DNA of 32,000 bases from Opitutales bacterium (GTDB lineage Bacteria > Verrucomicrobiota > Verrucomicrobiia > Opitutales > PNEW01), in assembly GCA_965219535.1 (NCBI GenBank), contig CBDCNV010000001.1, forward strand, positions 870,001 to 902,000. Reading direction: 5' to 3'. Positions 1 to 32,000 of this stretch are shown in pieces. The notes beneath the pieces are model-generated. The model saw only the letters and a program-made list of their open reading frames with translations, did not search any database and had not been told where the DNA came from. The translations under genes and the position numbers were made by a program. Position 1 is the stretch's first letter. Each line of letters starts with the position of its first letter.

Positions 1-69
1 GGTCCTGGGACTTTGTCCATGACCGCACAGACAATGGCTGTCCATTAAAGATGATGACTCTGATCGATG

Positions 70-112
70 TACCGAGGAGCTGAAAGCGACGACACTCAAG
101 CGAAGCGAAGAC
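70..112 (+). repeat. 43-nt micro-insertion (TACCGAG family) replacing one A of the GAA codon in LID-E-YTR
   Basis: The sequence is gatg[TACCGAGGAGCTGAAAGCGACGACACTCAAGCGAAGCGAAGAC]atatacg, against an expected gatgaatatacg. It contains an in-frame TGA. The identical 43-mer lies at 6140-6182 (rc) in IS type B. Confidence 0.8.
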
Positions 113-240
113 ATATACGCGTCAATGCTTGGATATCCGGGTCGCCCGTCAACTCACCTCTACCGATGTCCTCTCTGTGCTTAGCGAGGCCATTGAAGAG
201 GAGGGAACTCCTAGCTATATCCGTAGTGACAACGGCAGTG

Positions 241-272
241 TTCCGAGGAGCGAAGCGACGACATGCGAAGCC
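241..272 (+). repeat. 32-nt micro-insertion (TTCCGAG variant) replacing one A of the GAA codon in DNGS-E-F
   Basis: The sequence is agtg[TTCCGAGGAGCGAAGCGACGACATGCGAAGCC]attcattg, against an expected agtgaattcattg. The identical 32-mer lies at 5980-6011 (rc). Confidence 0.8.
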
Positions 273-798
273 ATTCATTGCTCATCAACTGTAGCAGTGG
301 TTGTCCGACAAAAAGATCAAGGCGATCTATATCGATCCGGGTAGTCCATGGCAAAACGGTTTCATCGAGTCGTTTCACAACCGCTTACCCGATGCGTGTT
401 TGAACCGTGAAGTGTTGCTCAGCGTAGCTGAAGCGCAAGTGGTAATTGAATAATGGCGTCAGACCTATAACCATGAACATCCCCACAGTCGTTTAGGCTT
501 TAAAAGCCCACAAGAGTTTGTCAGATTCCTTTCCGCTCTTGGCCGCGTTCGGGCTACGCCCTCACTGCGCCAAGATCTCTCATATACATCAATCCTAAAA
601 CCATTAACTCTCGATAACTCTCTCACTTAAAAATTGGTACGAAAAACAGGGTCCAATCACAGACAATAACTTTTTGGTTGATCGGAAGTTGAGAAGAAAA
701 CTATCAATGTTGTTGCCTGGCAGAGTTGCGATTTGATCCCACAGTGTCTGACAGATCAAGGCGCAACAAGTACATATAATTTTCACAATAACATATAA

Positions 799-1662
799 TT
801 ATACTCTACTATTTTTATGAGCATTTTCGATTAATTCTTTCAGTAATTCACAATGGGTTTTGATGTCTCCTTCCCGTATCCTAAGATTATATTTTTCCAA
901 CCTTGTTACATATTCAGCATCGAGTTCTGCTTCTTCCAGTTTTTTATTCAAGCTAGAGTTTTCTGGTAAACGTATCTGAAGACTAACCCATTGTTTCTTA
1001 GGCCTGCATGTAATAAAGTTATTTGGAATACCAGCTTTAGCTAAGCCAATATAGAACTTGTTGTATTTAAATTCAATTTGAGCATCTATTGATTTTACTA
1101 TTTCAAGTATTTTATCGGCCATCGCAATTGTTTTCTTAGACCCCCTCTTAATCCAATAATCCCTATCGGTTACTTCATGGCTTTCTTCATCCTCATCAAT
1201 CAACCCCAATGCAAGTTCATCTATTACTTTAGTAAAAGTAAGTCCAATCCCTTCACCGACTTTTATAGCATTCACTTGTATAGCGACCAGTGGAATCATT
1301 CCATTAAATAACGATACAATATTTAGAAATCGACTAGTAATGTCCTCAGCTACTAATACAGCACAATGGTCATATTGAGGATATCTTTTTCTTTCAAGAT
1401 CCCAATACTCAATTGTGCGAACGATATGACTTTCATCAGTGGGCCCAAGTTGCACCTCGACTTCATATCTTTTATTATTATCAGGATCTTGGAGTAGTAG
1501 ATCTAAACGCCCTGCCCTGGGTTGCCTTCGTTCTTTATCTCTGAGTAAAACATCTCCTAGCCCTAAAATTGTCGGATCACTGGCAATAGCTTTCTGAACC
1601 CAAATTTCATTAATTTCAGGATGCTGCTTTATTGAGATAGTTTCTAATTTAATGTGTTGCAT
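799..1662 (-). CDS. Hypothetical protein; tentative N-terminal PD-(D/E)xK (NucS/DUF91-like) nuclease core
   Basis: This is a 287-aa ORF with no competing ORF, in an AT-rich island. The motif GRLDLLLQD..YEVEVQLG resembles a D..(D/E)xK core with Q in place of K. The C-terminal half (KFYIGLAK..) resembles DUF5655-like domains. Both assignments are from memory and were not searched. Confidence 0.55.
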   Translation of the reverse strand: MQHIKLETISIKQHPEINEIWVQKAIASDPTILGLGDVLLRDKERRQPRAGRLDLLLQDPDNNKRYEVEVQLGPTDESHIVRTIEYWDLERKRYPQYDHCAVLVAEDITSRFLNIVSLFNGMIPLVAIQVNAIKVGEGIGLTFTKVIDELALGLIDEDEESHEVTDRDYWIKRGSKKTIAMADKILEIVKSIDAQIEFKYNKFYIGLAKAGIPNNFITCRPKKQWVSLQIRLPENSSLNKKLEEAELDAEYVTRLEKYNLRIREGDIKTHCELLKELIENAHKNSRV

Positions 1663-1789
1663 GATTTCTCATAGTTAAGTCTTAATTGCGTATCAATTTA
1701 ATTCGTTTATCAGGTATCTATCCTAGAACCTATCTACTAACTAAATATATGAGCCAATTGGGGAACTGTAAACGGGAGTCAACACCCGG

Positions 1790-1840
1790 TAACTCTCTCA
1801 CTTAAACTGCTACGAAAAAGGGGTCCGATCAGGATTCAGT
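1790..1840 (+). mobile_element. Solo right-end fragment (~50 bp) of IS type A
   Basis: AACACCCGGTAACTCTCTCACTTAAACTGCTACGAAAAAGGGGTCCGATCA matches the IS-A terminus. No transposase sequence lies upstream of it. Confidence 0.75.
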
Positions 1841-1990
1841 CATTGTGTATAGCAACTCGCGCTCAAGAGACTCAGCCCTTAAGTGACTGTTGAGCTCTCG
1901 GCAAATCCGTTGTGCCAAGGACAGTTATGGTCGATATAAATCGTGCCGATCAGGTGCTCTCGCAGACACTGCTGGATGGCTTTGGGTACC
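1841..1990 (-). pseudogene. C-terminal fragment of a further IS3-like transposase, frameshifted and cut by the IS-A end at 1840
   Basis: The reverse translation is ..IYIDHNCPWHNGFAES then, after a 1-nt frame slip, LRAESLERELLYTMTES. This is the PWxNGxxES DDE-E region. Confidence 0.6.
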
Positions 1991-2252
1991 ACTAAAGAAC
2001 ATAGCAAAGAATTTAGGTATTAGCCATACAACGGTTATGAATTTGCATAATGAATTAGAGGAAAAAAGGGGGGTTAAACTTTCGCAGAGATTATTTACGC
2101 AAGACACATATTAAACACGTTGATAAATAAGGATTAAGTAGGCTTGGGGTGGGTTACTCAAAAGAGAGGAAAGGGTTAATACATATAATATTTAATAAGT
2201 TTCGTGAGAAACGGAAAATCTGACAGAAGATTGGATGTGAGGAGTTCTCCTG

Positions 2253-2930
2253 TTATTGTAACGGTTTATCTTTTACAATCGGTAAGATTATATTCAAACC
2301 ATGGCTCAGGTCTTCCTCATCGATTTCTCCATCCCTGTATCGTTTCCAGAGGGGTAGAACGTCGCTCTTCAAGCTCTCAGGATCATAAACAACGATCCCC
2401 ATCCCAGAGATCATTTTATCCCATATCCATTTCGAAGAATCATACAAAAACCTTTGTCGTTCTTCAATCCAATCACTCCCTAGATAGCCCTCTGAAATTA
2501 CGCCTTGGAAGTGTAATGTTTTTTTACTACATTCTCCATGTATGCGCTTTAATTTAGGGATATCCCAGATGATCCCCTTAGGTCGAGGCTTCGAATCAAG
2601 TTCATCAATTATTTTACTCATCACAGTAAATTTATTATAATATGGAGAGAATTTATCGATCAGTTGGTATAGCGTGGTCGTTGACTTTAAAGCCTTTTTA
2701 TATTCGGTCTGACTGAGTTCTCCTCCGCGAGCCGCTCCGAATAAATTAAACCAAAGATGTTCAATAGCTAAACGTAAGTGAAGCCCGGCATAATGAAGGG
2801 TTTGCGGAGAACTGTTTCTCTTAAAATGGTCTAACCATGAAAGAGAATTAAAAACATGCCAAGCTGGATCCTCTATGTAAGCAGAGGACAAAATTTTATC
2901 AGCAGTATGATTTTTGTAATCTATAGTCAT
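2253..2930 (-). CDS. Hypothetical protein with an Rx4H (HEPN-like) motif
   Basis: This is a 225-aa ORF in the AT-rich island. RLAIEH fits the HEPN Rx4-6H signature. No other family is recognisable. Confidence 0.55.
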   Translation of the reverse strand: MTIDYKNHTADKILSSAYIEDPAWHVFNSLSWLDHFKRNSSPQTLHYAGLHLRLAIEHLWFNLFGAARGGELSQTEYKKALKSTTTLYQLIDKFSPYYNKFTVMSKIIDELDSKPRPKGIIWDIPKLKRIHGECSKKTLHFQGVISEGYLGSDWIEERQRFLYDSSKWIWDKMISGMGIVVYDPESLKSDVLPLWKRYRDGEIDEEDLSHGLNIILPIVKDKPLQ

Positions 2931-2979
2931 TCTTTAATCATATTTTTAACAGCAATTATCCAATTTCAATCATTTAAGT

Positions 2980-3050
2980 AATAACGCCTATAACCATGTC
3001 AAATAACGTCATACCCGCCGCTTAATAGAAGATATATAAAAAGGCTCAGA
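2980..3050. repeat. Copy 1 of a ~75-nt direct repeat in an ORF-free region
   Basis: AATAACGCCTATAACCATGTCAAATAACGTCATACCCGCC..TAAAAAGGC aligns with copy 2 at 3307-3390 at about 80% identity over the first 40 nt, judged by eye. Confidence 0.5.
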
Positions 3051-3306
3051 TAAAAAACTTTTACCTTAGGGGTGAAATAGTTGATACATATTTCAAACTA
3101 TAAGAGGTATTAATATTTGATTGGTAAGTGTTCTTTACCTGCCAACCATAAATAAATATCTATTGTCCTAAGTGTCTAATTGTTTAGATTGTAGAATTGC
3201 TGAAATTTTTAAATTATTTCTTTACTAGGTGTAACAACAGGTGTCATTTATCAGTTTTAAATAAAATATATTGGGTAGCGAATGATTTGCGCAATTCATT
3301 GAGAAT

Positions 3307-3390
3307 AATAACACTTATAACCGTGTCAATTTGCGTAATAGCCGCATCAAATAAACGTTTTAACAGTGGGGGATAGTAAAAAGGCCTTGA
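3307..3390. repeat. Copy 2 of the ~75-nt direct repeat
   Basis: The sequence is AATAACACTTATAACCGTGTCAATTTGCGTAATAGCCGCA..GTAAAAAGGC. It is preceded by the near-palindrome AATGATTTGCGCAATTCATT at 3281-3300. Confidence 0.5.
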
Positions 3391-3870
3391 TCTCGGGGAA
3401 AACGCGGAAATTTTGTGTTATTTTTGACGAATAGATTGTTAGAAATTATTCGTACCTGACCGTTTTGGTTAACATAGTGGGGGTGCTACTGTTCAACTTC
3501 AGCCTGGTAATCTAAAATAACGGTTTACCTAATTTCCCCTGATAATATGCCAGCAGAGGCTATTGGGTTTGATGGAAAGGAATTGAAAACAGGATGATCT
3601 TCAAATCAGGCACTTAAAAAATAGAAATTACTTCTGAAGAATGATCTAAATAAGAAGATAATTAATCTTAGTTTGAGTTATCTTTTTCTGGATTCATCTT
3701 ATTGCGATATTTTTCTGTCACGATGTTGGTCTTGATCAAAGACACAGTCAGATCGATTAATGCCTTCAAATCTTCAATATCTTTACCTTCTCATTTTTTA
3801 GGGTATTGCAGCTTTTATTATAATATACTCGCCTAAAAAGAAGCAGTTAATAACTAAAGAGGTTTATCAT

Positions 3871-4451
3871 ATGACTAATGGTGGAAAAAAGAACGTACTG
3901 TTTATATTTGGTGCAGGAATTTCGTTAGCCTCTCGCCCAAAATTCGGAGAACCCATTTCTACAGATACAATAACTAAGGCAATTTTCACTGATAAATTAC
4001 AGAAGAATAGGGCACAATGGTTTGACCCTGAAAGAGATGGTGAGCCATCACCAATTGTTGATGAAGGCATTCACCCTCTATTAAGGTTAATAAAGTATAA
4101 ATTTATTAATCATCTTAGATATAGAGAATACAAAGTCACCTATGAAGATATATTTTACTTTTTGATTTCTCATGACCGTGAAGGTGGTTATACAAAGAAT
4201 CCTTTATTAAAAAATGCATTTGCACAGTTTGCTGATGAAGCATGCCTTGCTTGGAAGGCTGCTAAAAATTTTGATAGGGACTATGAATTCTGGGCGGAAA
4301 TGCTAATTCTAGCACAAAAGTATATAAAGTCCGTTGTTAAATTTCATTTATGTGATTTATGTGAACCAATAGGTTACGAGTGGTTAAGCGATACTATGCA
4401 GGATGGAAAGTATAAGAGCAATATCGTTACTTTAAATCATGATAGCCTATT
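3871..4451 (+). pseudogene. SIR2-like (SIR2_2-type, defence-associated) gene, 3'-truncated by an IS type A end
   Basis: The ORF runs 3871..4488, with AAGAGG 9 nt upstream of the ATG. NVLFIFGAGIS and IVTLNHDSLFD resemble the GAGxS and TTNYD motifs of SIR2_2 domains. From 4452 the frame runs into TGATCGGACCCCGTTTTTCGTACC (the IS terminal repeat), which supplies RTPFFVPLFK and the stop. Confidence 0.5.
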
Positions 4452-4640
4452 TGATCGGACCCCGTTTTTCGTACCACTTTTTAAGTGAGAGAGTTACCTT
4501 GTATTAATGGTATTAGGATTGATGTATATGAGAGATCTTGGCGAAGTGAGGGCGTAGCCCGAACGCGGCCAAGAGCGGAAAGGAATCTGACAAACTCTTG
4601 TAGGCTTTTAAAGCCTAAACGACTGTGGGTCCGTTCAGGG
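4452..4640 (-). mobile_element. IS type A, 3'-terminal ~190-bp fragment (inverted relative to copy at 1-659)
   Basis: The reverse translation is ..RLGFKSLQEFVRFLSALGRVRATPSLRQDLSYTSIL.., nearly identical to 490-600. The terminal repeat starts at 4452. Confidence 0.85.
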
Positions 4641-4717
4641 GAATCACGCCACCCAATCAGAGACAATCCTTTATTCAATCGGGTTTGATCTATAAATATT
4701 TTTAACGCCGTAATTTT

Positions 4718-5380
4718 TTACCTGCGAGACAGCGCAAAAAGGTAAAGTAGATTTCCCAAGGACGCGATAAAAGCAGCCACATAGGTAAATCCTGCCGCGT
4801 CCAAAGTTTTGCTTACCCCTGGGATTTCTGAAGGATCAACGATTCCCAGATTCGGCAGTTGAGCCTTAGCTCGCCTGCTCGCATCAAATTCTACAGGAAG
4901 CGTTACCAGTTGAAAGACGGTTAATACAAGATAAACAAAAATGCCCAACTTGATTAGGCCCAAGATACCAAAGAAAAAACCGCCAATAATTACAAATGGC
5001 AGCAACCGTGATGCAAAGTTTGTAATTGGAATCAGAGCCATACGAAATTGAAGCGCTTTGTAACCCACTTTGTGCTGAATAGCGTGCCCAGCCTCATGGG
5101 CGGCAACACCCAAAGCCGCTAAACTCGTGCCCCTGTAATTCTCTTCACTCAAAGCAAGGCGTTTATGTACCGGATCATAATGATCGGTCAAATGACCACG
5201 AATGGCTACGATATTAACATCGTCAATGCCCGCGCTTCGCATTACATAAGCTGCAGCTTCCCGTCCGGTAATACGACTGCGGGAATTCACTTGAGAATAT
5301 TTATTATAAGTACTGGACACCTTTGCCTGTGCCCACATAGCGATAATAATAGGGATAATAATAAATAATAGAAAGCTCAT
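4718..5380 (-). CDS. yugP: YugP-like membrane zinc metallopeptidase (Pfam Zn_peptidase_2)
   Basis: This is a 220-aa ORF with HEAGHAIQH (HExxH), GHLTDHYDP and TLPVEFDASRRA motifs. It has an N-terminal and two central hydrophobic segments, as in Bacillus YugP. Confidence 0.85.
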   Translation of the reverse strand: MSFLLFIIIPIIIAMWAQAKVSSTYNKYSQVNSRSRITGREAAAYVMRSAGIDDVNIVAIRGHLTDHYDPVHKRLALSEENYRGTSLAALGVAAHEAGHAIQHKVGYKALQFRMALIPITNFASRLLPFVIIGGFFFGILGLIKLGIFVYLVLTVFQLVTLPVEFDASRRAKAQLPNLGIVDPSEIPGVSKTLDAAGFTYVAAFIASLGNLLYLFALSRR

Positions 5381-5882
5381 TGCTCAATAGATATTTATGC
5401 AGGGGATAAAACAATCTGTTCCCCTATCCCACAAGTCAAGTTAAAGAGCCTCTCGATAGTAAACGTTCAGTTACATCCTCGTATAGCCTCACTCTTTCTG
5501 AAAATTCTGGCAGATCCACTTTCTTCGAATTCAGGGAAGATCCAAGCGCATTTACATTTTGAAGGTAGATCTCTTCTGTTTTCAAATTTACTCATTTTTT
5601 ATCGTATTTTTATACAAACCGACGATTTGGTGGGGTTATTAGTGTTTTCAATCTGGTCGGGTTAGGCAAACTGGTCCACCGGGAGAGTTAGTGTGGAGAG
5701 GTTAATGTTGAAGTTGAGTGGGTAGAGGAAGTCAAGGCTTGGGCGGGCACGGACATGATTGTAAAGCCAGCACCAATCTTCGATCACCACACCTGCTTCG
5801 GTTAAAGTGCATAGCTGTTGACGGTTTAAACACTGCTCGCGAAAACGGGCATGAAACGACTCAACGAAACCATGGAAGATGT

Positions 5883-5906
5883 CGCTAACGCTCGGTACTG
5901 CCAAGG
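5883..5906 (-). repeat. 24-nt micro-insertion in the PWQ-N-GF codon of IS type B
   Basis: On the coding strand the sequence is ccttggcag[TACCGAGCGTTAGCGACATCTTCC]atggtttc, against an expected cagaatggtttc. Confidence 0.75.
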
Positions 5907-5979
5907 GCTTGCTGGTTGGATATAGACGGTTGTGATTTTCATCGCCGCCAGTGAAGCTCGCAATTCGCTTTGAGTAAAT

Positions 5980-6011
5980 GGCTTCGCATGTCGTCGCTTC
6001 GCTCCTCGGAA
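5980..6011 (-). repeat. 32-nt micro-insertion, identical to 241-272, at the DNGS-E-F codon of IS type B
   Basis: The reverse complement reads ggatcgg[TTCCGAGGAGCGAAGCGACGACATGCGAAGCC]atttactc. Confidence 0.8.
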
Positions 6012-6139
6012 CCGATCCATTGTCGCTACTCATATATTGTGGAGGTCCATGCCGGTCGATCAGTTTTTGCATGATACAGCGCAGCGTTTCCGCATTGCTA
6101 TAGCGATCAACATGGATCACCCGACACTCGCGGGGGTAT

Positions 6140-6182
6140 GTCTTCGCTTCGCTTGAGTGTCGTCGCTTTCAGCTCCTCGGTA
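6140..6182 (-). repeat. 43-nt micro-insertion, identical to 70-112, at the VLD-E-Y codon of IS type B
   Basis: The reverse complement reads gctcgatg[TACCGAGGAGCTGAAAGCGACGACACTCAAGCGAAGCGAAGAC]ataccccc. Confidence 0.8.
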
Positions 6183-6612
6183 CATCGAGCACGGGCAGCA
6201 TTTTTAAACTGCCACCGCGAACCGTCTTAGCGTGGATAAAATCCCAACTCCAAACCTGGCCGGGATGTTCGCCCTTCCTCGGCAGCCTGGTGTAGATACC
6301 CCGGCGACGGCCTCTTCGCTTGCACAGGACCGATCGCCACAGGTCCAGTTCACCTCGCAGACCTTGTACGAGCCGTTTACCTACTTGCCAGCCTTCGTGC
6401 TTGAACAACTTCGTGATCTTCGGATAGCCCCAACTGGCGTATTGCCGTGATAACCGCCTTACTGGCCCCTTCAATTTCGTTAGCCAAGCATCCGCATGCC
6501 TTGGCCCGATACGCATAGGGGCAACGGTGCAGCTGAAAGTATCGGCACGCTGCACGCATCGTACACTGGCCCTCAGCCACAAGGCTCTTTGCCCCTTGTG
6601 CCCAGCGCTTAT

Positions 6613-6636
6613 TACCGAGCGTAAGCGACATCTTCC
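6613..6636 (+). repeat. 24-nt micro-insertion in the orfA/orfB junction region of IS type B, opposite orientation to the transposase
   Basis: The sequence is cgcttat[TACCGAGCGTAAGCGACATCTTCC]attttattcgag. Confidence 0.7.
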
Positions 6637-7039
6637 ATTTTATTCGAGGGTCTCCTGCACCATCTCTATCCCCAGCAGCTTGTCTGCGAGCATCCGTTTT
6701 AGCCGCGCGTTCTCCTTCAAAGAGCTCTTTCATCCACTTGGCTTCGTTGACATCAATCATCCCTAACTCACGCTTCCAACGGTGCAAGCTCTGTTCGCTT
6801 ATATTGTTCTCGCGGCATACTTCCAGGATCGTTTTCCCTTTGTCTGCCTAGCGCAGCATCCGTATCTTCTTTTCGGTCGTGTAGCTTTTGCCTTTCTTTG
6901 TCCGAGTCCTTCTTAGGTTACCCACACTATCTTTTCAACTGTCCCTGTTCCCGTGGTCTCGACCAAATTAATATAAATCGTAGATTTACAAGCAATGCCA
7001 GACGGGAGAGTTGAACTCCAAACTAAAGGCTCAGGAATT

Positions 7040-7284
7040 ATTTTTCCAGCTCTTTATATCGCTTCGCATCAGCTAGCTCCAAGTTCCCATACTTTTATGC
7101 CAGCGATAGAATGTCTGTTCGCTTAGGTTGTTGCCACGGCAGACTTCCTCTACCGTCTTGCGGGTATCGGCTTGCTTCAGGATTGTGATGATCTGTTCTG
7201 TTGTGTATCTTTTTCTTTTCATTTAGGTTATCTGTTTATCCCGATAACCTCTCTCTGTAAATGATACGATTTTGGGTTACTCCA
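7040..7284 (-). mobile_element. IS3-family sequence type D: left end plus N-terminal orfA fragment
   Basis: The reverse strand reads TGGAGTAACCCAAAATCGTATCATTTACAGAGAGAGGTTATCGGGATAAAC..ATG, then MKRKRYTTEQIITILKQADTRKTVEEVCRGNNLSEQTFYRWHK.. (IS3/IS911-type HTH), then decay. The same end recurs at 14097. Confidence 0.7.
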
Positions 7285-7478
7285 TTAAATCAACTCGAAA
7301 ATTCTTGGCCGATTCCTGGCCGAATATCAGCAAAAAATATGATTCCTGCCCTTTCCTGCCAAACATTTAAAGGCAAGGTCAGGAAATTAGAGGAAAATAT
7401 TATTATTGGTTCGTTATTTAAGTTTAACTAATTTTTAATAAGCAGCTGATAAGCTATTATTGAGTCCCGTTCACAGTC

Positions 7479-7780
7479 GGTTTCATCGAGTCGTTTCACA
7501 ACCGCTTACGCGATGAGTGTTTGAACCGTGAAGTGTTGCTCAGCTTAGCTGAAGCCATAGGGGTAATTGAACAATGGCGTCAGACCTATAACCATGAACA
7601 TCCCCACAGTCGCTTAGGCTTTAAAAGCCCACAAGAGTTTATCAGATTCCTTTCCGCTCTTGGCCGCGTTCGGGCTACGCCCTCACTTCGCCAAGATCTC
7701 TCATATACATCAATCCTAAAACCATTAACTCTCGATAACTCTCTCACTTAAAAATTGGTACGAAAAACGGGGTCCGATCA
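7479..7780 (+). mobile_element. IS type A, 3'-terminal ~300-bp fragment
   Basis: The translation is GFIESFHNRLRDECLNREVLLSLAEAIGVIEQWRQTYNHEHPHSRLGFKSPQEF.. followed by the terminal repeat ending ..GGGGTCCGATCA at 7780. Confidence 0.85.
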
Positions 7781-19411: not shown

Positions 19412-19697
19412 TTGTCGATTGTGTGGTGTTGATTGGACCCCATAATTACTACCAAGTTAAGTGAGAGTCATTCCGTGGGTTATCTGTTGCTGGTTTAGCA
19501 GGTGCTGGCGGAGGGAAACCATAGGCCGAGTGGAGCCAGCACCTGTTGGATTGAGTTCCTGCCAGAGTTTGGCAAAAGCGTTGGGACAGAGAAAGCCTAA
19601 ACGACAATGAGGGTGATGGGTATTGTATTTTTGCTTCCACGCATGGATGACAACACGCGCTTCGGTAACGCTTAAAAACCACTCCTGGTTTAAGCAT

Positions 19698-19733
19698 GAG
19701 TGCTTCGCTATGTCGTCACTGCGTTCCTCGGTA
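19698..19733 (-). repeat. 36-nt micro-insertion at the HD-E-CLN codon of IS type C
   Basis: On the coding strand the sequence is catgacg[TACCGAGGAACGCAGTGACGACATAGCGAAGCACTC]atgcttaaac, against an expected gacgaatgctta. Confidence 0.75.
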
Positions 19734-19774
19734 CGTCATGCAGTCGATGGTGAAAGGATTCAACATGGCCGTTT

Positions 19775-19817
19775 ATTATTCTCGCTTTCGCTCGTTGAGG
19801 GGTCGCTTCGCTCGGTA
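19775..19817 (-). repeat. 43-nt micro-insertion at the PW-Q-NG codon of IS type C
   Basis: On the coding strand the sequence is ccttggc[TACCGAGCGAAGCGACCCCTCAACGAGCGAAAGCGAGAATAAT]aaacggccat, against an expected tggcaaaacggc. The 3' boundary is ambiguous by a few A/T bases. Confidence 0.65.
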
Positions 19818-20328
19818 GCCAAGGACTGCCAGGGTCGATGTAGATAATGTCGATCTGGCGCTTGAGGAGTGCTTCTGTGACTTTTTGTGCTACGAACTGC
19901 GAACCGTTATCGGAGCGGATGCATGGGGGTTGCACCACGTCTTCGCTTTTGAGCGAATGAGATATCTTTATGGCTAGGCATTGACGGGTATGTTCATCGA
20001 TTAAAGTCATCATCCGCAGTTGTCCCCCGCGATCGGTGTGGTCGGCAACAAAATCCCAACTCCATACATGGTTCGGCTTTACTGCTTTGGTAGGGAGCCC
20101 AGTAGAGTGCCCTCGTCGTCTCTGTCGGCGACGAGAGGGTTTCACTCCAAGCCCTTCAGTTCTTCGCACTTTTTGCACCAATTTACAGTTTACCTTCCAC
20201 CCCTCTTTGTCCATTAGGGCACGAATACGACGATAGCAATAACGTGAATGTACCTTTGAAAGTCTAATGATTCGTCTCACCATGGTCTGATTACAATAAG
20301 ATTCTCGCTTGCACTCGTAGAGATAAGT

Positions 20329-20688
20329 TCAGCGATGGAGCCCAAAAAACCTGCAGGTCCAACGCAGCGAGCAAACCCCCTGGGCTACCACATGCTTGAC
20401 CGCTTCTTTCTTATGCGACGAGCTTACCATTTTTTTATCCACTTCCTCCAATACGCGATTCTTTAACATCTGCTCGGCTAACATCTTTTTCCGTTCCATG
20501 TTCTCGCGTTCAAGTTCCTTTAGCCGCCTCGCATTGCGTAGGTCTATCTGGTCATATCTTTTTCGCCAGCGATGGTAACTTTGAGCACTGATGTTGTGCT
20601 CACGGCAGACTTCCTGGATGCCTCTGGCGCTGTCTACTTCGCGCAGGATTGCTATGATCTGCTCGGTGTTGTGTCTTTTCTGTTTCAT
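20329..20688 (-). CDS. IS3-family transposase OrfA (HTH_Tnp_1 plus leucine zipper) of IS type C
   Basis: The product reads MKQKRHNTEQIIAILREVDSARGIQEVCREHNISAQSYHRWRKRY..LKELERENMERKKMLAEQ. The frame continues through an A7 run into orfB-type sequence and stops at a single TGA that is in frame with the next ORF (19708..20283). Confidence 0.8.
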   Translation of the reverse strand: MKQKRHNTEQIIAILREVDSARGIQEVCREHNISAQSYHRWRKRYDQIDLRNARRLKELERENMERKKMLAEQMLKNRVLEEVDKKMVSSSHKKEAVKHVVAQGVCSLRWTCRFFGLHR

Positions 20689-21217: not shown

Positions 21218-21388
21218 CTCTTGTCATTGCGAAGGAGGCGTAGCCGACTGCGGCTACCGAGCGCAGCGACATCTTCCATTCCAGGGGAATGCCGGTCACG
21301 TATTGACATCCCCCTGGAATGGAAGATGTCGTCCTGCTGTTGCAGAACTCGGTAGCTTCGTCGCGTTGCTTCTCGCAATGACAATAAG
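21218..21388. mobile_element. Hairpin MITE (~171 bp) with TTGTCATTGCGA termini and a TACCGAG micro-element in each arm
   Basis: The left arm is CTCTTGTCATTGCGAAGG..GCGGC[TACCGAGCGCAGCGACATCTTCC]ATTCCAGGGG. The right arm is CCCCTGGAAT[GGAAGATGTCGTCCTGCTGTTGCAGAACTCGGTA]GCTTCG..TCGCAATGACAA. The micro-elements lie at 21255-21277 (+) and 21321-21354 (-). Confidence 0.75.
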
Positions 21389-21414
21389 AAATCAATCCGA
21401 CATCCGCAATCGAT

Positions 21415-28481: not shown

Positions 28482-28597
28482 TCGATTTGCGATGAGGGAT
28501 GTCGGGCTGCGCCCTCGGTAGCCGATTTGCGATGAGGGATGTCCATCCGTCGCACGAGGCTATTGACGACAGGCGGGCTGCGCCCTCGGTAGCCGAT
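28482..28597. repeat. BIME-like mosaic: alternating modules CGATTTGCGATGAGGGATGTC (x2) and GGGCTGCGCCCTCGGTAGCCGATT (x2)
   Basis: The first module lies at 28482-28502 and 28523-28543. The second lies at 28503-28526 and 28574-28597. It contains a GGGC-tgc-GCCC mini-hairpin and the CTCGGTAGC word. Confidence 0.75.
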
Positions 28598-28702
28598 TGT
28601 GCAGGATGCAAGATCCTAAATACAGGATTGCTAGACAGTGAACAGTGATCGGTCGCTGTCGTCCCACAGTGCTGAAATTAAAGCTAATCGTGTTTACTTC
28701 CC

Positions 28703-28938
28703 CTCTTGTCATTGCGAGGAGCAACGCGACGCGGCAATCCAGGCAAATAGTCACATTGCCTACGAATGCCAATCTCCGCTCAGATCTGTCGAATGAGGAT
28801 TCGTCTCTTCAATTAAGGTATTCGACCAGTTGAGAGTAAATCCTAATATCCAGGGACCTACATGATGCAGCAGAAATTCCCCTGGAATGGAAGATGTCGC
28901 TACGCTCGGTAGCCGCGCTTCGCTCGCAATGACAAGAG
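28703..28938. mobile_element. MITE (~236 bp) with perfect 16-bp terminal inverted repeats CTCTTGTCATTGCGAG; micro-element only in the right arm
   Basis: The TIRs lie at 28703-28718 and 28923-28938. The right arm reads CCCCTGGAAT[GGAAGATGTCGCTACGCTCGGTA]GCCGCGCTTCGCTCGCAATGACAAGAG, with the insert at 28889-28911. The left arm has GCGGCAATCCAGG at 28731-28743 with no insert. Confidence 0.8.
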
Positions 28939-28981
28939 TGTGGTTACGAAGATAAGGATTATATTTAGTAACCACCAGGCA

Positions 28982-30012: not shown

Positions 30013-31392
30013 CTACGACATAAAATTATCAGCTTTGGCACGTAACCGTTTCACATCATCGACGTGGGCTTTATTATCTATCAGATTGTGGTTTTCACTC
30101 GGATCAGCGTCTAAATTAAATAGCTGTTCAGGCCAATCTCTATTCACGAAGCGAAAGTATTTCATGTGATCTTGCTTGACCATCACCGATGGCCCGTAAC
30201 CCGGAACATGTAATTCACTGTAAACTTCATTCGGCCATCCGTCTGATCTACCTTCCATAAGCGGAACGAGGGAGCGTCCATCCAATCCGGTTGGTATTGG
30301 CACCTGGGCTATCTCGCAGAGAGTCGGGAATAAATCGACCAGTGAGACATTTTCCTGAATAATCGCGCTGCCTCGATTAAACTTCTGTGGCCATGAGATG
30401 AAGAATGGCACACGCACCGAAGAGTCAAAGTACAGATCTTTAAACCATAGTCCTTTTTCACCAAGCATCTCACCGTGGTCGGATAGAAAAACTATTACGA
30501 AATCGTCGAGTACATTCAGCGCTTCAAGCTTGGAGATAACACGCCCGAACTGCGTATCCGCCCACTCGATCATTCCGTAATAGGCGGAGGTTGCTCTATG
30601 CGCTTCGCGGTAGGTTACATCTTCCCCAACTTTTATTTTGCTAGTATCGGCGAAGTCAAAATTTTCAGGGAGGTCTTCGACGCGTGGCTTCACACGTTGC
30701 ATGTAATAGGTAAACAGCTCTTCGGGGCATTGGAATGGATAGTGCGGGCAATTCAGGCTGACCGCGAGTAGTAGCGGACCCTCGCCGGGCCTATCGTGAG
30801 TCGCATCGACAAAGAATTCGTCGAGGTACATCAAGGCTCCATCAACGGTGTACTTATCCTGTTTCATCAAAGTACTCATTCCGACACGGGTGTTGGCGAT
30901 TTCCTTGGCTATCCCCCAGACGCCCGTACCATCTTTGTGCAAGGTAATTTCTTCGTGAAAGGTCATTGCCTGGTGAAGGGAGCGATCCACTGGTTCATAG
31001 CCATTGCGCCCTCGGATGTCTCGGCCAATTCTCTCATACCAGCCGTGCATCTGATCGGATCCGTCGGCAAAGTGCATTTTTCCCGCAGCGACGGGGTGGT
31101 ACCCGTAACGTGAGAGGTGCCCAGGAATGGTCACCACCTCGCTTGGCAGAGGGGTTCCCCAATCTCTAGTTCCGCATTTTTTAAGATAGTTTCCGGCAAG
31201 GAAGCATTGCCTTGCCGGCACACATGCCGGTGATGGTGTGTAAGCGTTACGAAAATAGGTGCCTTGGTTGATGAACCTATCGAGCGTCGGAGTTCGAATG
31301 ATAGAATCACCTTCGATGGGCATTACATCCGGTCGATGCTCATCATCTATTAGCAATAAAATATGAGGTTTTTTTTTAGTATTTTCCATCAT
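30013..31392 (-). CDS. Formylglycine-dependent sulfatase (type I), no recognisable signal peptide
   Basis: SPACVPARQCFLAG contains the CxPxR motif. HILLLIDDEHR is the N-terminal metal-binding strand and FLSDHGEMLGEKGLW is the conserved C-terminal core. Confidence 0.9.
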   Translation of the reverse strand: MMENTKKKPHILLLIDDEHRPDVMPIEGDSIIRTPTLDRFINQGTYFRNAYTPSPACVPARQCFLAGNYLKKCGTRDWGTPLPSEVVTIPGHLSRYGYHPVAAGKMHFADGSDQMHGWYERIGRDIRGRNGYEPVDRSLHQAMTFHEEITLHKDGTGVWGIAKEIANTRVGMSTLMKQDKYTVDGALMYLDEFFVDATHDRPGEGPLLLAVSLNCPHYPFQCPEELFTYYMQRVKPRVEDLPENFDFADTSKIKVGEDVTYREAHRATSAYYGMIEWADTQFGRVISKLEALNVLDDFVIVFLSDHGEMLGEKGLWFKDLYFDSSVRVPFFISWPQKFNRGSAIIQENVSLVDLFPTLCEIAQVPIPTGLDGRSLVPLMEGRSDGWPNEVYSELHVPGYGPSVMVKQDHMKYFRFVNRDWPEQLFNLDADPSENHNLIDNKAHVDDVKRLRAKADNFMS

Positions 31393-31524: not shown

Positions 31525-32000
31525 CTAAGACATAAAATCATCAGCTTTGGCACGTAACCTTTTCAGATCGTCGGCGTGAGCCGCGTCATTTATCAGATTT
31601 TGATTTTCACCCGGATCAGCGTCTAAATCAAAGAGCTGCTCAGGCCATTCTTTACCCTCGAAACGGAAGTACTTTAAGTGGTCCTGTTTGACCATCACCG
31701 ACGGCCCGTTAAATGGATGGTATAATTCGCTATAAACTTCATTCGGCCAATCGTCAGACTTTCCTTCCATGAGCGAAACGAGGGAGCGTCCATCCAACCC
31801 GTTTGGTATCGGCACCTGGGCTATCTCGCAGAGGGTCGGGAATAAATCGACGAGCGAGACATTTTCCTGAATAATTGCGCTGCCTTGATTAAACTTTTGT
31901 GGCCTCGAGATGAAGAACGGTACACGTACCGAAGCATCAAAGTACTGCTGTTTTTCCCATAGTCCTTTTTCGCCAAGCATCTCACCGTGGTCGGACAGAA
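31525..32000 (-). CDS. Tandem sulfatase paralog, C-terminal part (gene continues beyond the window end)
   Basis: The frame stays open to position 32000 (..SDHGEMLGEKGLWEKQQYFDASVRVPFFISRPQKF..). It is roughly 85% nucleotide identity, by eye, to 30013-30490. Confidence 0.9.
   Translation of the reverse strand, partial: LSDHGEMLGEKGLWEKQQYFDASVRVPFFISRPQKFNQGSAIIQENVSLVDLFPTLCEIAQVPIPNGLDGRSLVSLMEGKSDDWPNEVYSELYHPFNGPSVMVKQDHLKYFRFEGKEWPEQLFDLDADPGENQNLINDAAHADDLKRLRAKADDFMS

Follow-up and report, generated by a model that had tools for sequence, protein, structure and literature searches.

The window analysed here, a stretch of 32,000 nt, lies on a contig of 1.35 Mb from the ENA metagenome assembly ERZ25072670 and stems from an uncultured Opitutales bacterium of marine type. 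It carries genes for a sulfatase, a DUF2961/GH172-type protein, a solute-binding protein and a sugar-phosphate isomerase-like protein, as well as three IS3 copies that are interrupted by short inserts. The original prediction had judged the gene content not to be cyanobacterial and had noted the lack of the HIP1 octamer. Both points hold, as the octamer does not occur in the 32,000-nt window and the host belongs to Opitutales, Verrucomicrobiota. The family of repeats described below recurs in MAGs labelled Opitutales, Puniceicoccaceae and Opitutaceae, and the host is therefore a member of Verrucomicrobiota and not a cyanobacterium.

At the centre of the analysis stands one IS3-family element and the two inserts in its transposase gene:

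19449-20688, minus strand: IS3-family element of type C, host of both inserts, with OrfA (HTH_Tnp_1) at 20332-20688 and the rve transposase from 20328 to about 19460
19775-19817, minus strand: variant C insert, 43 nt, TACCGAGCGAAGCGACCCCTCAACGAGCGAAAGCGAGAATAAT, at codon Q of PW-Q-NG of the type C IS3 transposase
19698-19733, minus strand: variant D insert, 36 nt, TACCGAGGAACGCAGTGACGACATAGCGAAGCACTC, at codon E of HD-E-CLN

Both inserts, 43 nt at PW-Q-NG and 36 nt at HD-E-CLN, had been placed exactly by the original prediction. Variant C adds 42 nt net and stays in frame, so that 15 amino acids stand in place of Q. Variant D brings a TAG stop (..DVPRNAVTT followed by the stop). With one A in place of each insert, translation yields a single frame that reads ...IDPGSPWQNGHVESFHHRLHDECLNQEWF..., and the rebuilt OrfB frame also reads ...YIDPGSPWQNGHVESFHHRLHDECLNQEWFLSVTEARVVIHAWKQKYN...; excision of the inserts without adding a base leaves the frame broken. 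Since the transposase has an in-frame stop and an internal deletion besides the inserts, the type C IS is a pseudogene. It is present as a single copy in the source contig.

Relatives of both inserts sit at identical codons elsewhere. A match to variant C (40/43 nt) is found at the same codon in L006, which comes from another genome, and the variant also occurs in the proteins P0015, P0024, P0028, P0053 and P0124; a short-peptide protein search for it in a word index returned 3 candidates, which was uninformative. In L006, two IS copies have a match to variant D at the corresponding codon (34/36 by inspection; 31/32 in blastn over the first 32 nt), and the variant is present in the proteins P0028, P0124 and P0144.

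Of the 13 family members in the window, eight lie within the three IS3 copies, and the other five belong to two clusters of intergenic repeats. IS3 genes make up about 11% of the window. Apart from the two type C inserts, the members are:

70-112, plus strand: variant A, 43 nt, at codon E of LID-E-Y of IS3 copy 1
241-272, plus strand: variant B, 32 nt with two GCGAAGC mini-hairpins, at codon E of SDNGS-E-F of IS3 copy 1
6140-6182, minus strand: variant A in IS3 copy 2, at the codon homologous to that filled in copy 1, matching 70-112 at 43/43 positions
5980-6011, minus strand: variant B in IS3 copy 2, again at the homologous codon, matching 241-272 at 32/32 positions
5874-5897, minus strand: simple 24-nt element, TACCGAGCGTTAGCGACATCTTCC, 3' of the CAG of PWQ-N-G of IS3 copy 2
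6613-6636, plus strand: simple 24-nt element, antisense to IS3 copy 2 in the OrfA/frameshift region
21255-21277, plus strand: 23-nt element in the left arm of the nested palindrome 21222-21390
21321-21354, minus strand: 34-nt element with a 7-bp hairpin, GTTCTGC/GCAGGAC, in the right arm of the palindrome 21222-21390
28889-28911, minus strand: 23-nt element in one arm of a second composite palindrome
28494-28520, minus strand: 27-nt member, TACCGAGGGCGCAGCCCGACATCCCTC, with a 4-bp stem, GGGC/GCCC
28534-28591, minus strand: the 27-nt element TACCGAGGGCGCAGCCCGACATCCCTC, interrupted by an extra 31-nt module

Eleven of the 13 members begin with T(A/T)CCGAG, at 70, 241, 6613 and 21255 on the plus strand and at 28911, 21354, 19817, 19733, 6182, 6011 and 5897 on the minus strand, and at all eleven the left junction is any base followed by T(A/T)CCGAG, as had been claimed for ten instances. 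Two further relatives begin at 28520 and 28591 on the minus strand. While the A and B inserts of copies 1 and 2 are identical, their flanks share only about 65-70% identity. The site of the element at 5874-5897 is empty in copy 1 (345-359), L053, L099 and L101. In L064, an element lies at the place analogous to 6613-6636, directly 3' of A AAA AAT. The opposite arm of the second composite palindrome (around 28727, plus strand) is empty and reads GACGCGGC-AA-TCCAGG.

A common plan was recognised when all T(A/T)CCGAG sites in the loci of the genome scan were considered. An unpaired head, T(A/T)CCGA, comes first, then a variable segment, then the core GACAT, and the element closes with a short tail (CTTCC, CCCTC, CTTAC and the like). 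The variable segment forms a hairpin and preserves its pairing through changes of sequence, e.g., GGAC-GAA-GTCC, GAGC-AAA-GCTC, GCCT-GTAA-AGGC and GTTCCGC-AATA-GCGGAAC. Stems of at least 3 bp anchored at the ends are present in 29 of 87 distinct variable regions, whereas shuffles yield 5.8 on average and 11 at most. In an alignment of 18 sequences of the 11-nt class, 94% of the cells are paired (25-44% in slid controls) and 10 cells show compensatory double changes, against 1.8 in shuffles. The simple elements measure 23-25 nt and the longer forms 32-58 nt. The latter include two-hairpin forms, T(A/T)CCGAGGA-hairpin-GACGACAY-hairpin-tail, to which variants A, B and D belong and which have relatives outside IS genes and in JGI metagenome contigs. 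The inserts had been described as one modular family, and this is supported.

The commonest variable segments are GCGCAGC, GCGAAGC, GCGTAGC and GCGNNAGC. The mini-hairpin motif GCGN(N)AGC is present in 12 of the 13 window members, both type C inserts included; beyond GCGNAGC and GCGNNAGC, many relatives have other stems. DNA mini-hairpins of the GCGNAGC type have an exceptional stability which standard energy models miss (PMC13037366). In keeping with this, ViennaRNA folding of individual IS-borne inserts, among them those at 19775-19817 and 19698-19733, is no better than that of shuffles, as was to be expected. The structure that the original prediction had suggested looking for, supported by compensatory changes, is thus seen family-wide and not in the thermodynamic folding of its two inserts. 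The preference for GNA loops points to hairpins of DNA rather than RNA.

The family is real and well above chance. The pattern TACCGAGN{4,24}GACAY has 9 matches in the window where 0.06 are expected, and none of 100 shuffles reaches 9; TWCCGAG alone has 14 matches against 6.8 expected. A scan of 185,579 species genomes with the pattern TACCGAGN{3,6}GCGACATCTTCC gave at least 96 loci. Among the matches listed, 63 of 96 loci are in MAGs of the order Opitutales, with at least 27 matches in one chromosome of 4.49 Mb, and the remaining listed loci resemble chance matches in coding DNA of unrelated taxa. Samples of 8 kb from Opitutales genomes contain dozens of copies, and most genomic copies lie in non-coding repeats. 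A metagenome scan with CCGAGGAGCN{3,5}GCGACGACAY gave about 20 true elements, none in an IS context, and most of its matches were the ABC-ATPase coding motif AEELCDDI in GC-rich DNA. Relatives of the IS-borne variants were sought by blastn-short. No Rfam family matches the inserts, and a literature search found no paper on this repeat family. When the orientation of the matches in OY829953.1 was compared with their chromosome position, no pattern was visible; the comparison is invalid because most copies sit in palindromes.

The junctions were resolved by 12 independent comparisons of filled with empty sites or of reading frames. Nine of them are combinations of site and lineage within IS3 OrfB, two concern antisense inserts close to the frameshift site of OrfA, and the last is a non-coding context, context C (CAC-AAAA-TTCG versus CAC-(insert)-AAATTCG). 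In all of them the net change is the insert length minus one and no target is duplicated, in agreement with what had been proposed. The need for one extra base was established by translation in copy 2 (three sense inserts), type C (two) and L006 (four), by frame reading for the antisense insert of copy 2 (one), L053 and L064, and also by nucleotide alignment to intact copies. Indeed, replacement by one base restores OrfB of IS copy 2 with its three inserts and of the L006 IS with its four. Nucleotide alignment of filled and empty copies gave clean junctions at four sites. Site 1 changes from GATG-AG-TATACG to GATG-(43 nt)-ATATACG, site 2 from AGTG-AG-TTTATC to AGTG-(32 nt)-ATTTATC, site 3 from TGGC-AAAAC to TGGC-(43 nt)-AAAC and site 4 from GATG-AG-TGTTTG to GATG-(36 nt)-ATGTTTG. 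Target duplications are found neither in these alignments nor at any full-length insert. The sequence 5' of the insertion site is not conserved.

As for the identity of the lost base, the original prediction of a single A replaced in N-A-AT stands in part. One base is lost net at coding sites, but that base is not demonstrably an A. The closest empty sites have G-AG-T at the three Glu sites (1, 2 and 4) in two IS lineages and, in the type C lineage, C-AG-AAC at site 3. AA is found only in context C and, among the IS sites, at site 1 of L227 and site 3 of lineage I. At filled coding sites, the insert is followed by A in every case. Because most empty sites read AG, the element may itself end in A and delete the dinucleotide AR, and this is the reading we favour. 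Alternatively, only AA alleles may be susceptible, the AG alleles being survivors, which we hold to be the weaker of the two. The phase in hexamer arrays, where G-GG-ATC becomes G-(insert)-AATC, fits the deletion of AR, although variants of the arrays weaken this point. In the arms of composite palindromes, which are the most frequent non-coding context, 12 empty arms read GC-AA-TCCAGG, 15 filled ones GC-(23 nt)-A(T/C)TCCAGG and one (L082) GC-AT-TCCAGG; no net base loss is evident among these arms, which are diverged subfamilies and not true allelic pairs. The right junction had been given as AT. This is correct for all window instances then considered except the aaac case, and for the members at 28520 and 28591 too, but it does not extend beyond the window, where A follows the tail in about 90% of true members and is itself followed by T, A or C.

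Intact copies of the interrupted ISs exist. A protein search with the rebuilt L006 transposase returned uninterrupted homologues of 306-307 aa with 89-92% identity, in addition to fragments that read into inserts (..SDNGSVPRSEATTCEAI.., ..PWLPSEATPQRAKARITNG.. and ..DVPRNVVTT followed by a stop). In one sample, five identical intact IS copies lie at five different places, one of them inside a methyltransferase gene, and the empty form is therefore the active IS. Filling is mosaic: L053 is filled at site 2 only, P0144 at site 4 without site 3, and the insert that copy 2 has at site 3 is missing from copy 1. Filled ISs bear additional stops and frameshifts. Nevertheless, an IS with only site 2 filled is present at no fewer than three genomic places in one sample, so disabled copies are still mobilised, presumably in trans. 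Movement of filled ISs multiplies the inserts. An insert breaks the transposase gene or, with variant C, adds 14 codons in frame. Besides IS3 transposase genes, the insertion contexts are larger palindromic repeats and short tandem repeats, all of it dispensable DNA. Because intact, multi-copy ISs that are 89-92% identical to the filled ones exist, the inserts are recent invasions at the DNA level, and ancient inheritance, introns and bypass are excluded as the main explanation.

Taken as a whole, the inserts are probably a family of non-autonomous mobile repeats of 23-58 nt that move at the DNA level, similar to REPs or SDRs, and belong to the Opitutales genome. The small dispersed repeats SDR1-8 of Nostoc punctiforme and its relatives, attributed to Elhai et al. 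in 2008, are reportedly 21-27 nt long, dispersed and of high copy number. They are said to have neither terminal inverted repeats nor target-site duplications and to be nested in larger repeats and short tandem repeats, and their mobility was reportedly inferred from filled and empty sites. To our knowledge, they are the only described case of mobile DNA of about 24 nt, no enzyme is known for them, and the question of their mechanism has had no answer since 2008.

Measured against these features, the simple elements of the present family, with 23-25 nt, are of similar size, dispersed and present in many copies. They are likewise nested in composite palindromes and hexamer arrays, have no terminal inverted repeats or target-site duplications, and their mobility is deduced from filled/empty comparisons, with no enzyme linked to them. 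The resemblance to Nostoc-type SDRs that had been suggested is accordingly found in the size class of 23-25 nt, in the nesting and in the insertion into tandem repeats. In contrast to the SDRs, the host is Opitutales, i.e., another phylum, and the likeness is one of general features. Moreover, the present family includes two-hairpin forms of 32-58 nt, and its members insert recurrently at fixed codons of transposase genes with the loss of one target base. Passages of PMC3116915 and PMC5861425 cite the SDRs of Elhai (2008), and the latter describes them as restricted to Nostocaceae.

A second comparison can be made with the REP superfamily tagged by an unpaired CGTC, often TGTC and also CCTC, at one end of the stem-loop, which has stems of 8-9 bp with A-T first pairs, loops of 4-5 nt and the tail CCA (Di Nocera et al. 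2013; PMC3733652). Common traits are the short stem-loop with conserved unpaired bases at its foot, the heterogeneity of stems and loops within the family, the frequent inverted pairs inside larger palindromes, the copies inside genes and the absence of a known dedicated transposase. On the opposite strand, the elements read ..GA-TGTC- or GTCGTC-hairpin-TCGGTA, a resemblance of four bases only. Unlike in those REPs, the stems are 2-7 bp long and rich in G-C, the loops mostly have 3-4 nt, the tail is CTCGGTA, and most of each element consists of its long conserved head and tail. We know of no REP precedent for insertion junctions that lose a base. The elements work like REPs or SDRs and correspond fully to neither class.

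Other groups are more distant. In Rickettsia, palindromic elements of about 100-150 bp (RPE) have reportedly been described by Ogata et al. in 2000 inside housekeeping genes, where they are said to be translated in frame. Variant C resembles them, as it adds 14 aa in frame and is carried by full-length ORFs; by contrast, most variants of the present family break the frame or carry stops, and their hosts are transposase genes. RPE-4 and RPE-6 have been classed as CGTC REPs (PMC3733652). The MITEs were rejected because TACCGAG... at one end and ...CTTCC(A) at the other do not form inverted repeats and the target is not duplicated.

How such small elements move may be sketched as follows. Movement would proceed via single-stranded DNA, and the hairpin with its conserved unpaired flanks would be recognised by an enzyme acting in trans. 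Candidate enzymes are the Y1 HUH (IS200/RAYT-like) proteins encoded in the same genomes; this route in particular is put forward tentatively. The same chromosome has Y1_Tnp genes that match PF01797 (E-values 4.9e-13 and 1.8e-5); Y1_Tnp proteins are encoded at L040 6650-7630 and L029 7114-7557. These genes lie several kb from any element, and their flanks contain no TACCGAG element (about 0.5 Mb of genomes covered). The family has in common with IS200/IS605 elements the lack of target duplication, the hairpins with conserved unpaired neighbours and the presence of Y1 HUH genes in the genome. However, known HUH single-strand transposition inserts 3' of a fixed target of 4-5 nt and loses no base, whereas the elements described here have a variable 5' flank and lose one base. 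In REPtrons, a Y1 HUH transposase gene is flanked by its cognate REPs (PMC8266576), whereas no flanking RAYT gene was found here within the same 0.5 Mb or so.

The strict association of variants with sites is not explained by simple transposition. Variant A occurs only at LID-E-Y, B only at SDNGS-E-F, C only at PW-Q-NG and D only at (R/H)D-E-CLN. This fidelity spans three IS3 lineages with an OrfB identity of only about 45-56% at the protein level, while the inserts are 93-100% identical. The motif RTGAGTNT has exactly three occurrences in the lineage I IS, namely sites 1, 2 and 4; since lineage II is filled at CGAGT and GGAGT, a simple motif does not account for the choice of site. In addition, each variant and its reverse complement were aligned to cognate and non-cognate flanks, and no cognate-specific signal appeared. 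The guide hypothesis was rejected, as no variant-specific complementarity to the target flanks was found.

The main alternative, to which we give limited credence, is that the inserts spread between ISs by homing-like copying. Primary insertion would be rare at each site, and template switching during replication (copy-choice) or very short-patch conversion, relying on the few conserved bases of the protein motif, would then carry the insert to homologous sites. Such copying concerns the spread between ISs and is compatible with the mobile-repeat reading. It would fit with each site having its own variant in three IS lineages, and stable hairpins stall replication. Furthermore, copies 1 and 2 of the window agree completely (100%) in their A and B sequences, and L006 departs from each by one base. 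At L227 site 2, a chimera of the 5' 17 nt of variant B and a 4-nt target repeat, with the target AG intact, resembles an aborted copy-choice event. Nonetheless, no co-conversion is seen in the adjoining flanks, whose identity is only about 65-70%, and the left flanks of site 2 differ right up to the junction (AGTG, TCGG and TCCG). In the genome CBDANS01, two IS lineages have different B alleles, GCAAAGC and GCGAAGC, and therefore no homogenisation is seen between them. The variant subfamilies also exist outside IS genes.

A homing-type or programmable system, in which each variant would recognise one codon site of IS3-family transposase genes across lineages conserved only at the protein level, replace one or two bases and in effect silence the IS, appears rather improbable. 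If it were true, intact ISs would survive through 'resistant' AG in place of AA at the filled codons. Less probable still is a dedicated system, host-encoded or a hyperparasite of programmable or homing specificity, that writes sequences into transposase genes in order to silence ISs. Such a system would be in line with the 8 of 13 window members that sit in IS3 genes, about 11% of the window, and with the fact that only 3 of the 15 GA(A/G)T sites of the lineage I IS are ever used, the same ones being used in other lineages. The intact copies, moreover, mostly have AG and not AA at the filled codons, as if AA alleles had been eliminated. However, most genomic copies are in non-coding repeats, and ISs should be enriched in any case, since insertions into essential genes do not persist. 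Neither an associated gene nor guide complementarity was found.

That the inserts are old functional parts of the transposase, i.e., mini-introns, bypass elements or regulatory switches that are vertically inherited and selected, is very unlikely. They are, admittedly, over 93% identical between ISs with about 50% identical proteins, and their positions are the most conserved motifs. Variant C preserves the frame and is carried by full-length ORFs (P0015), and P0053 has a compensating frameshift. Against this stand the intact copies with 89-92% identity, which are the multi-copy and evidently active form, the mosaic presence and absence, the extra stops and frameshifts of filled copies, and the frame that remains broken after plain removal of the insert. 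In addition, the family is mostly non-coding and has no Rfam match. The separate versions of this idea were rejected in turn. For translational bypass or frameshifting, the frame is not regained with the take-off and landing codons, and in-frame stops are present in several variants. For introns, the rejection holds at the level of the DNA sequence: removal leaves a frameshift, active multi-copy ISs have no inserts, and Rfam gives no match. Ancient inheritance is contradicted by the intact copies at 89-92% identity. Finally, chance similarity or an assembly or sequencing artefact is refuted: many pattern matches in unrelated taxa are indeed chance matches in coding DNA, but the window has 9 matches against 0.06 expected, and the same inserts recur in independent assemblies from several samples and assemblers (ENA ctg, OY/OZ chromosomes, NODE_ and k141 contigs).

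Mobile DNA of about 24 nt is at the lower limit of what can carry recognition signals. Hosts that are coding sequences provide dozens of clean pairs of filled and empty sites, and their reading frame fixes the junctions to the base. Furthermore, the family supplies a covarying plan of head, hairpin and core as well as active and inactivated versions of one IS in related genomes. The question of how mobile repeats of about 24 nt move thereby becomes testable. Last but not least, a small parasite repeatedly disables larger ones, the IS3 elements, at their catalytic motifs, which bears on the control of the IS load in genomes.

Members of the family, which are 23-58-nt hairpin-bearing mobile repeats with a T(A/T)CCGA(G) head, are also nested in larger repeats. 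The window contains two large palindromes of nested build whose outer arms are CTTGTCATTGCGAGG.../...CCTCGCAATGACAAG, and the composite repeat carrying these arms is widespread in these genomes.

21222-21390: nested palindrome, TACCGAG elements in both arms, in inverted orientation
28700-28960: nested palindrome, one arm filled, the other empty

A family member can itself be interrupted.

28534-28591 (-): 27-nt family member split by the 31-nt module GCCTGTCGTCAATAGCCTCGTGCGACGGATG, which lies between the hairpin and GACAT

Its intact twin is located 14 nt downstream (28494-28520). At about 5636 (+) of locus L043, a TACCGAG head is followed by the module CCTGTCGTCCATAGCC, which is related to the 31-nt module. 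Together, these cases suggest a second kind of nested mini-insert. Pattern scans are confounded by the DNA word GCCGAGGAGCTSTGCGACGACATC, a coding sequence (AEELCDDI) of ABC-type ATPases that is widely conserved in GC-rich bacteria and mimics the core of the two-hairpin element (metagenome scan loci L109, L116, L119 and others).

The window also contains several IS3 sequences.

1-650 (+) and ~5500-6800 (-): two diverged IS3 copies, mutually inverted
7094-7222 (-) and 7467-7700 (+): further IS3 fragments

The stretch between the inverted copies (800-5400) is low in GC (35-42%), most of its ORFs have no Pfam match, and it is possibly a composite-transposon-like island. Elsewhere in the window, a sulfatase gene (30013-31392) is followed by a 151-aa ORF (31525-31980) nearly identical to the C-terminal part of the sulfatase; this ORF is a local partial duplication of the gene. 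IS200-like transposases (Y1_Tnp) of 326 aa with a long C-terminal extension were found at two scanned loci.

L040, 6650-7630 (-): Y1_Tnp gene
L221, 426-1406 (-): Y1_Tnp gene

The L040 gene is flanked on both sides by the inverted repeat GGGGTCAGGCCATGC...GCATGGCCTGACCCC and resembles the TIR-associated Y1 genes of PMC3733652.

As for the IS transposases, a simple 24-nt element lies antisense in the OrfA-OrfB overlap of two different IS3 lineages (L064, ~6300-6345; window, 6613-6636). In L064, it is immediately 3' of the slippery sequence A AAA AAT, a position in which it would disturb programmed -1 frameshifting. At L227, 2049-2110 (protein P0013), an IS that is intact in other respects has a remnant of 21 nt, in frame, at site 2, the codon E of SDNGS-E-F. 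This remnant begins with the 5' 17 nt of variant B, the site 2 insert; AGTG of the target then follows as a direct repeat, and the AG of the target is preserved. It is the product of an insertion that was aborted or of a deletion that restored the frame. The IS copy P0053 contains variants B and C, and a second frameshift downstream of B returns the reading frame; a single ORF therefore spans both inserts. Selection for restored reading is a possible cause, as is chance.

The type C IS (19449-20688, -), host of variants C and D, lacks about 13 codons present in relatives between SEDVV and CIRSDNG and has an in-frame stop (GLHR*TYLY). P0124, 81% identical to it, shares the deletion and both inserts; thus, the filled type C pseudogene lineage persisted and diverged.
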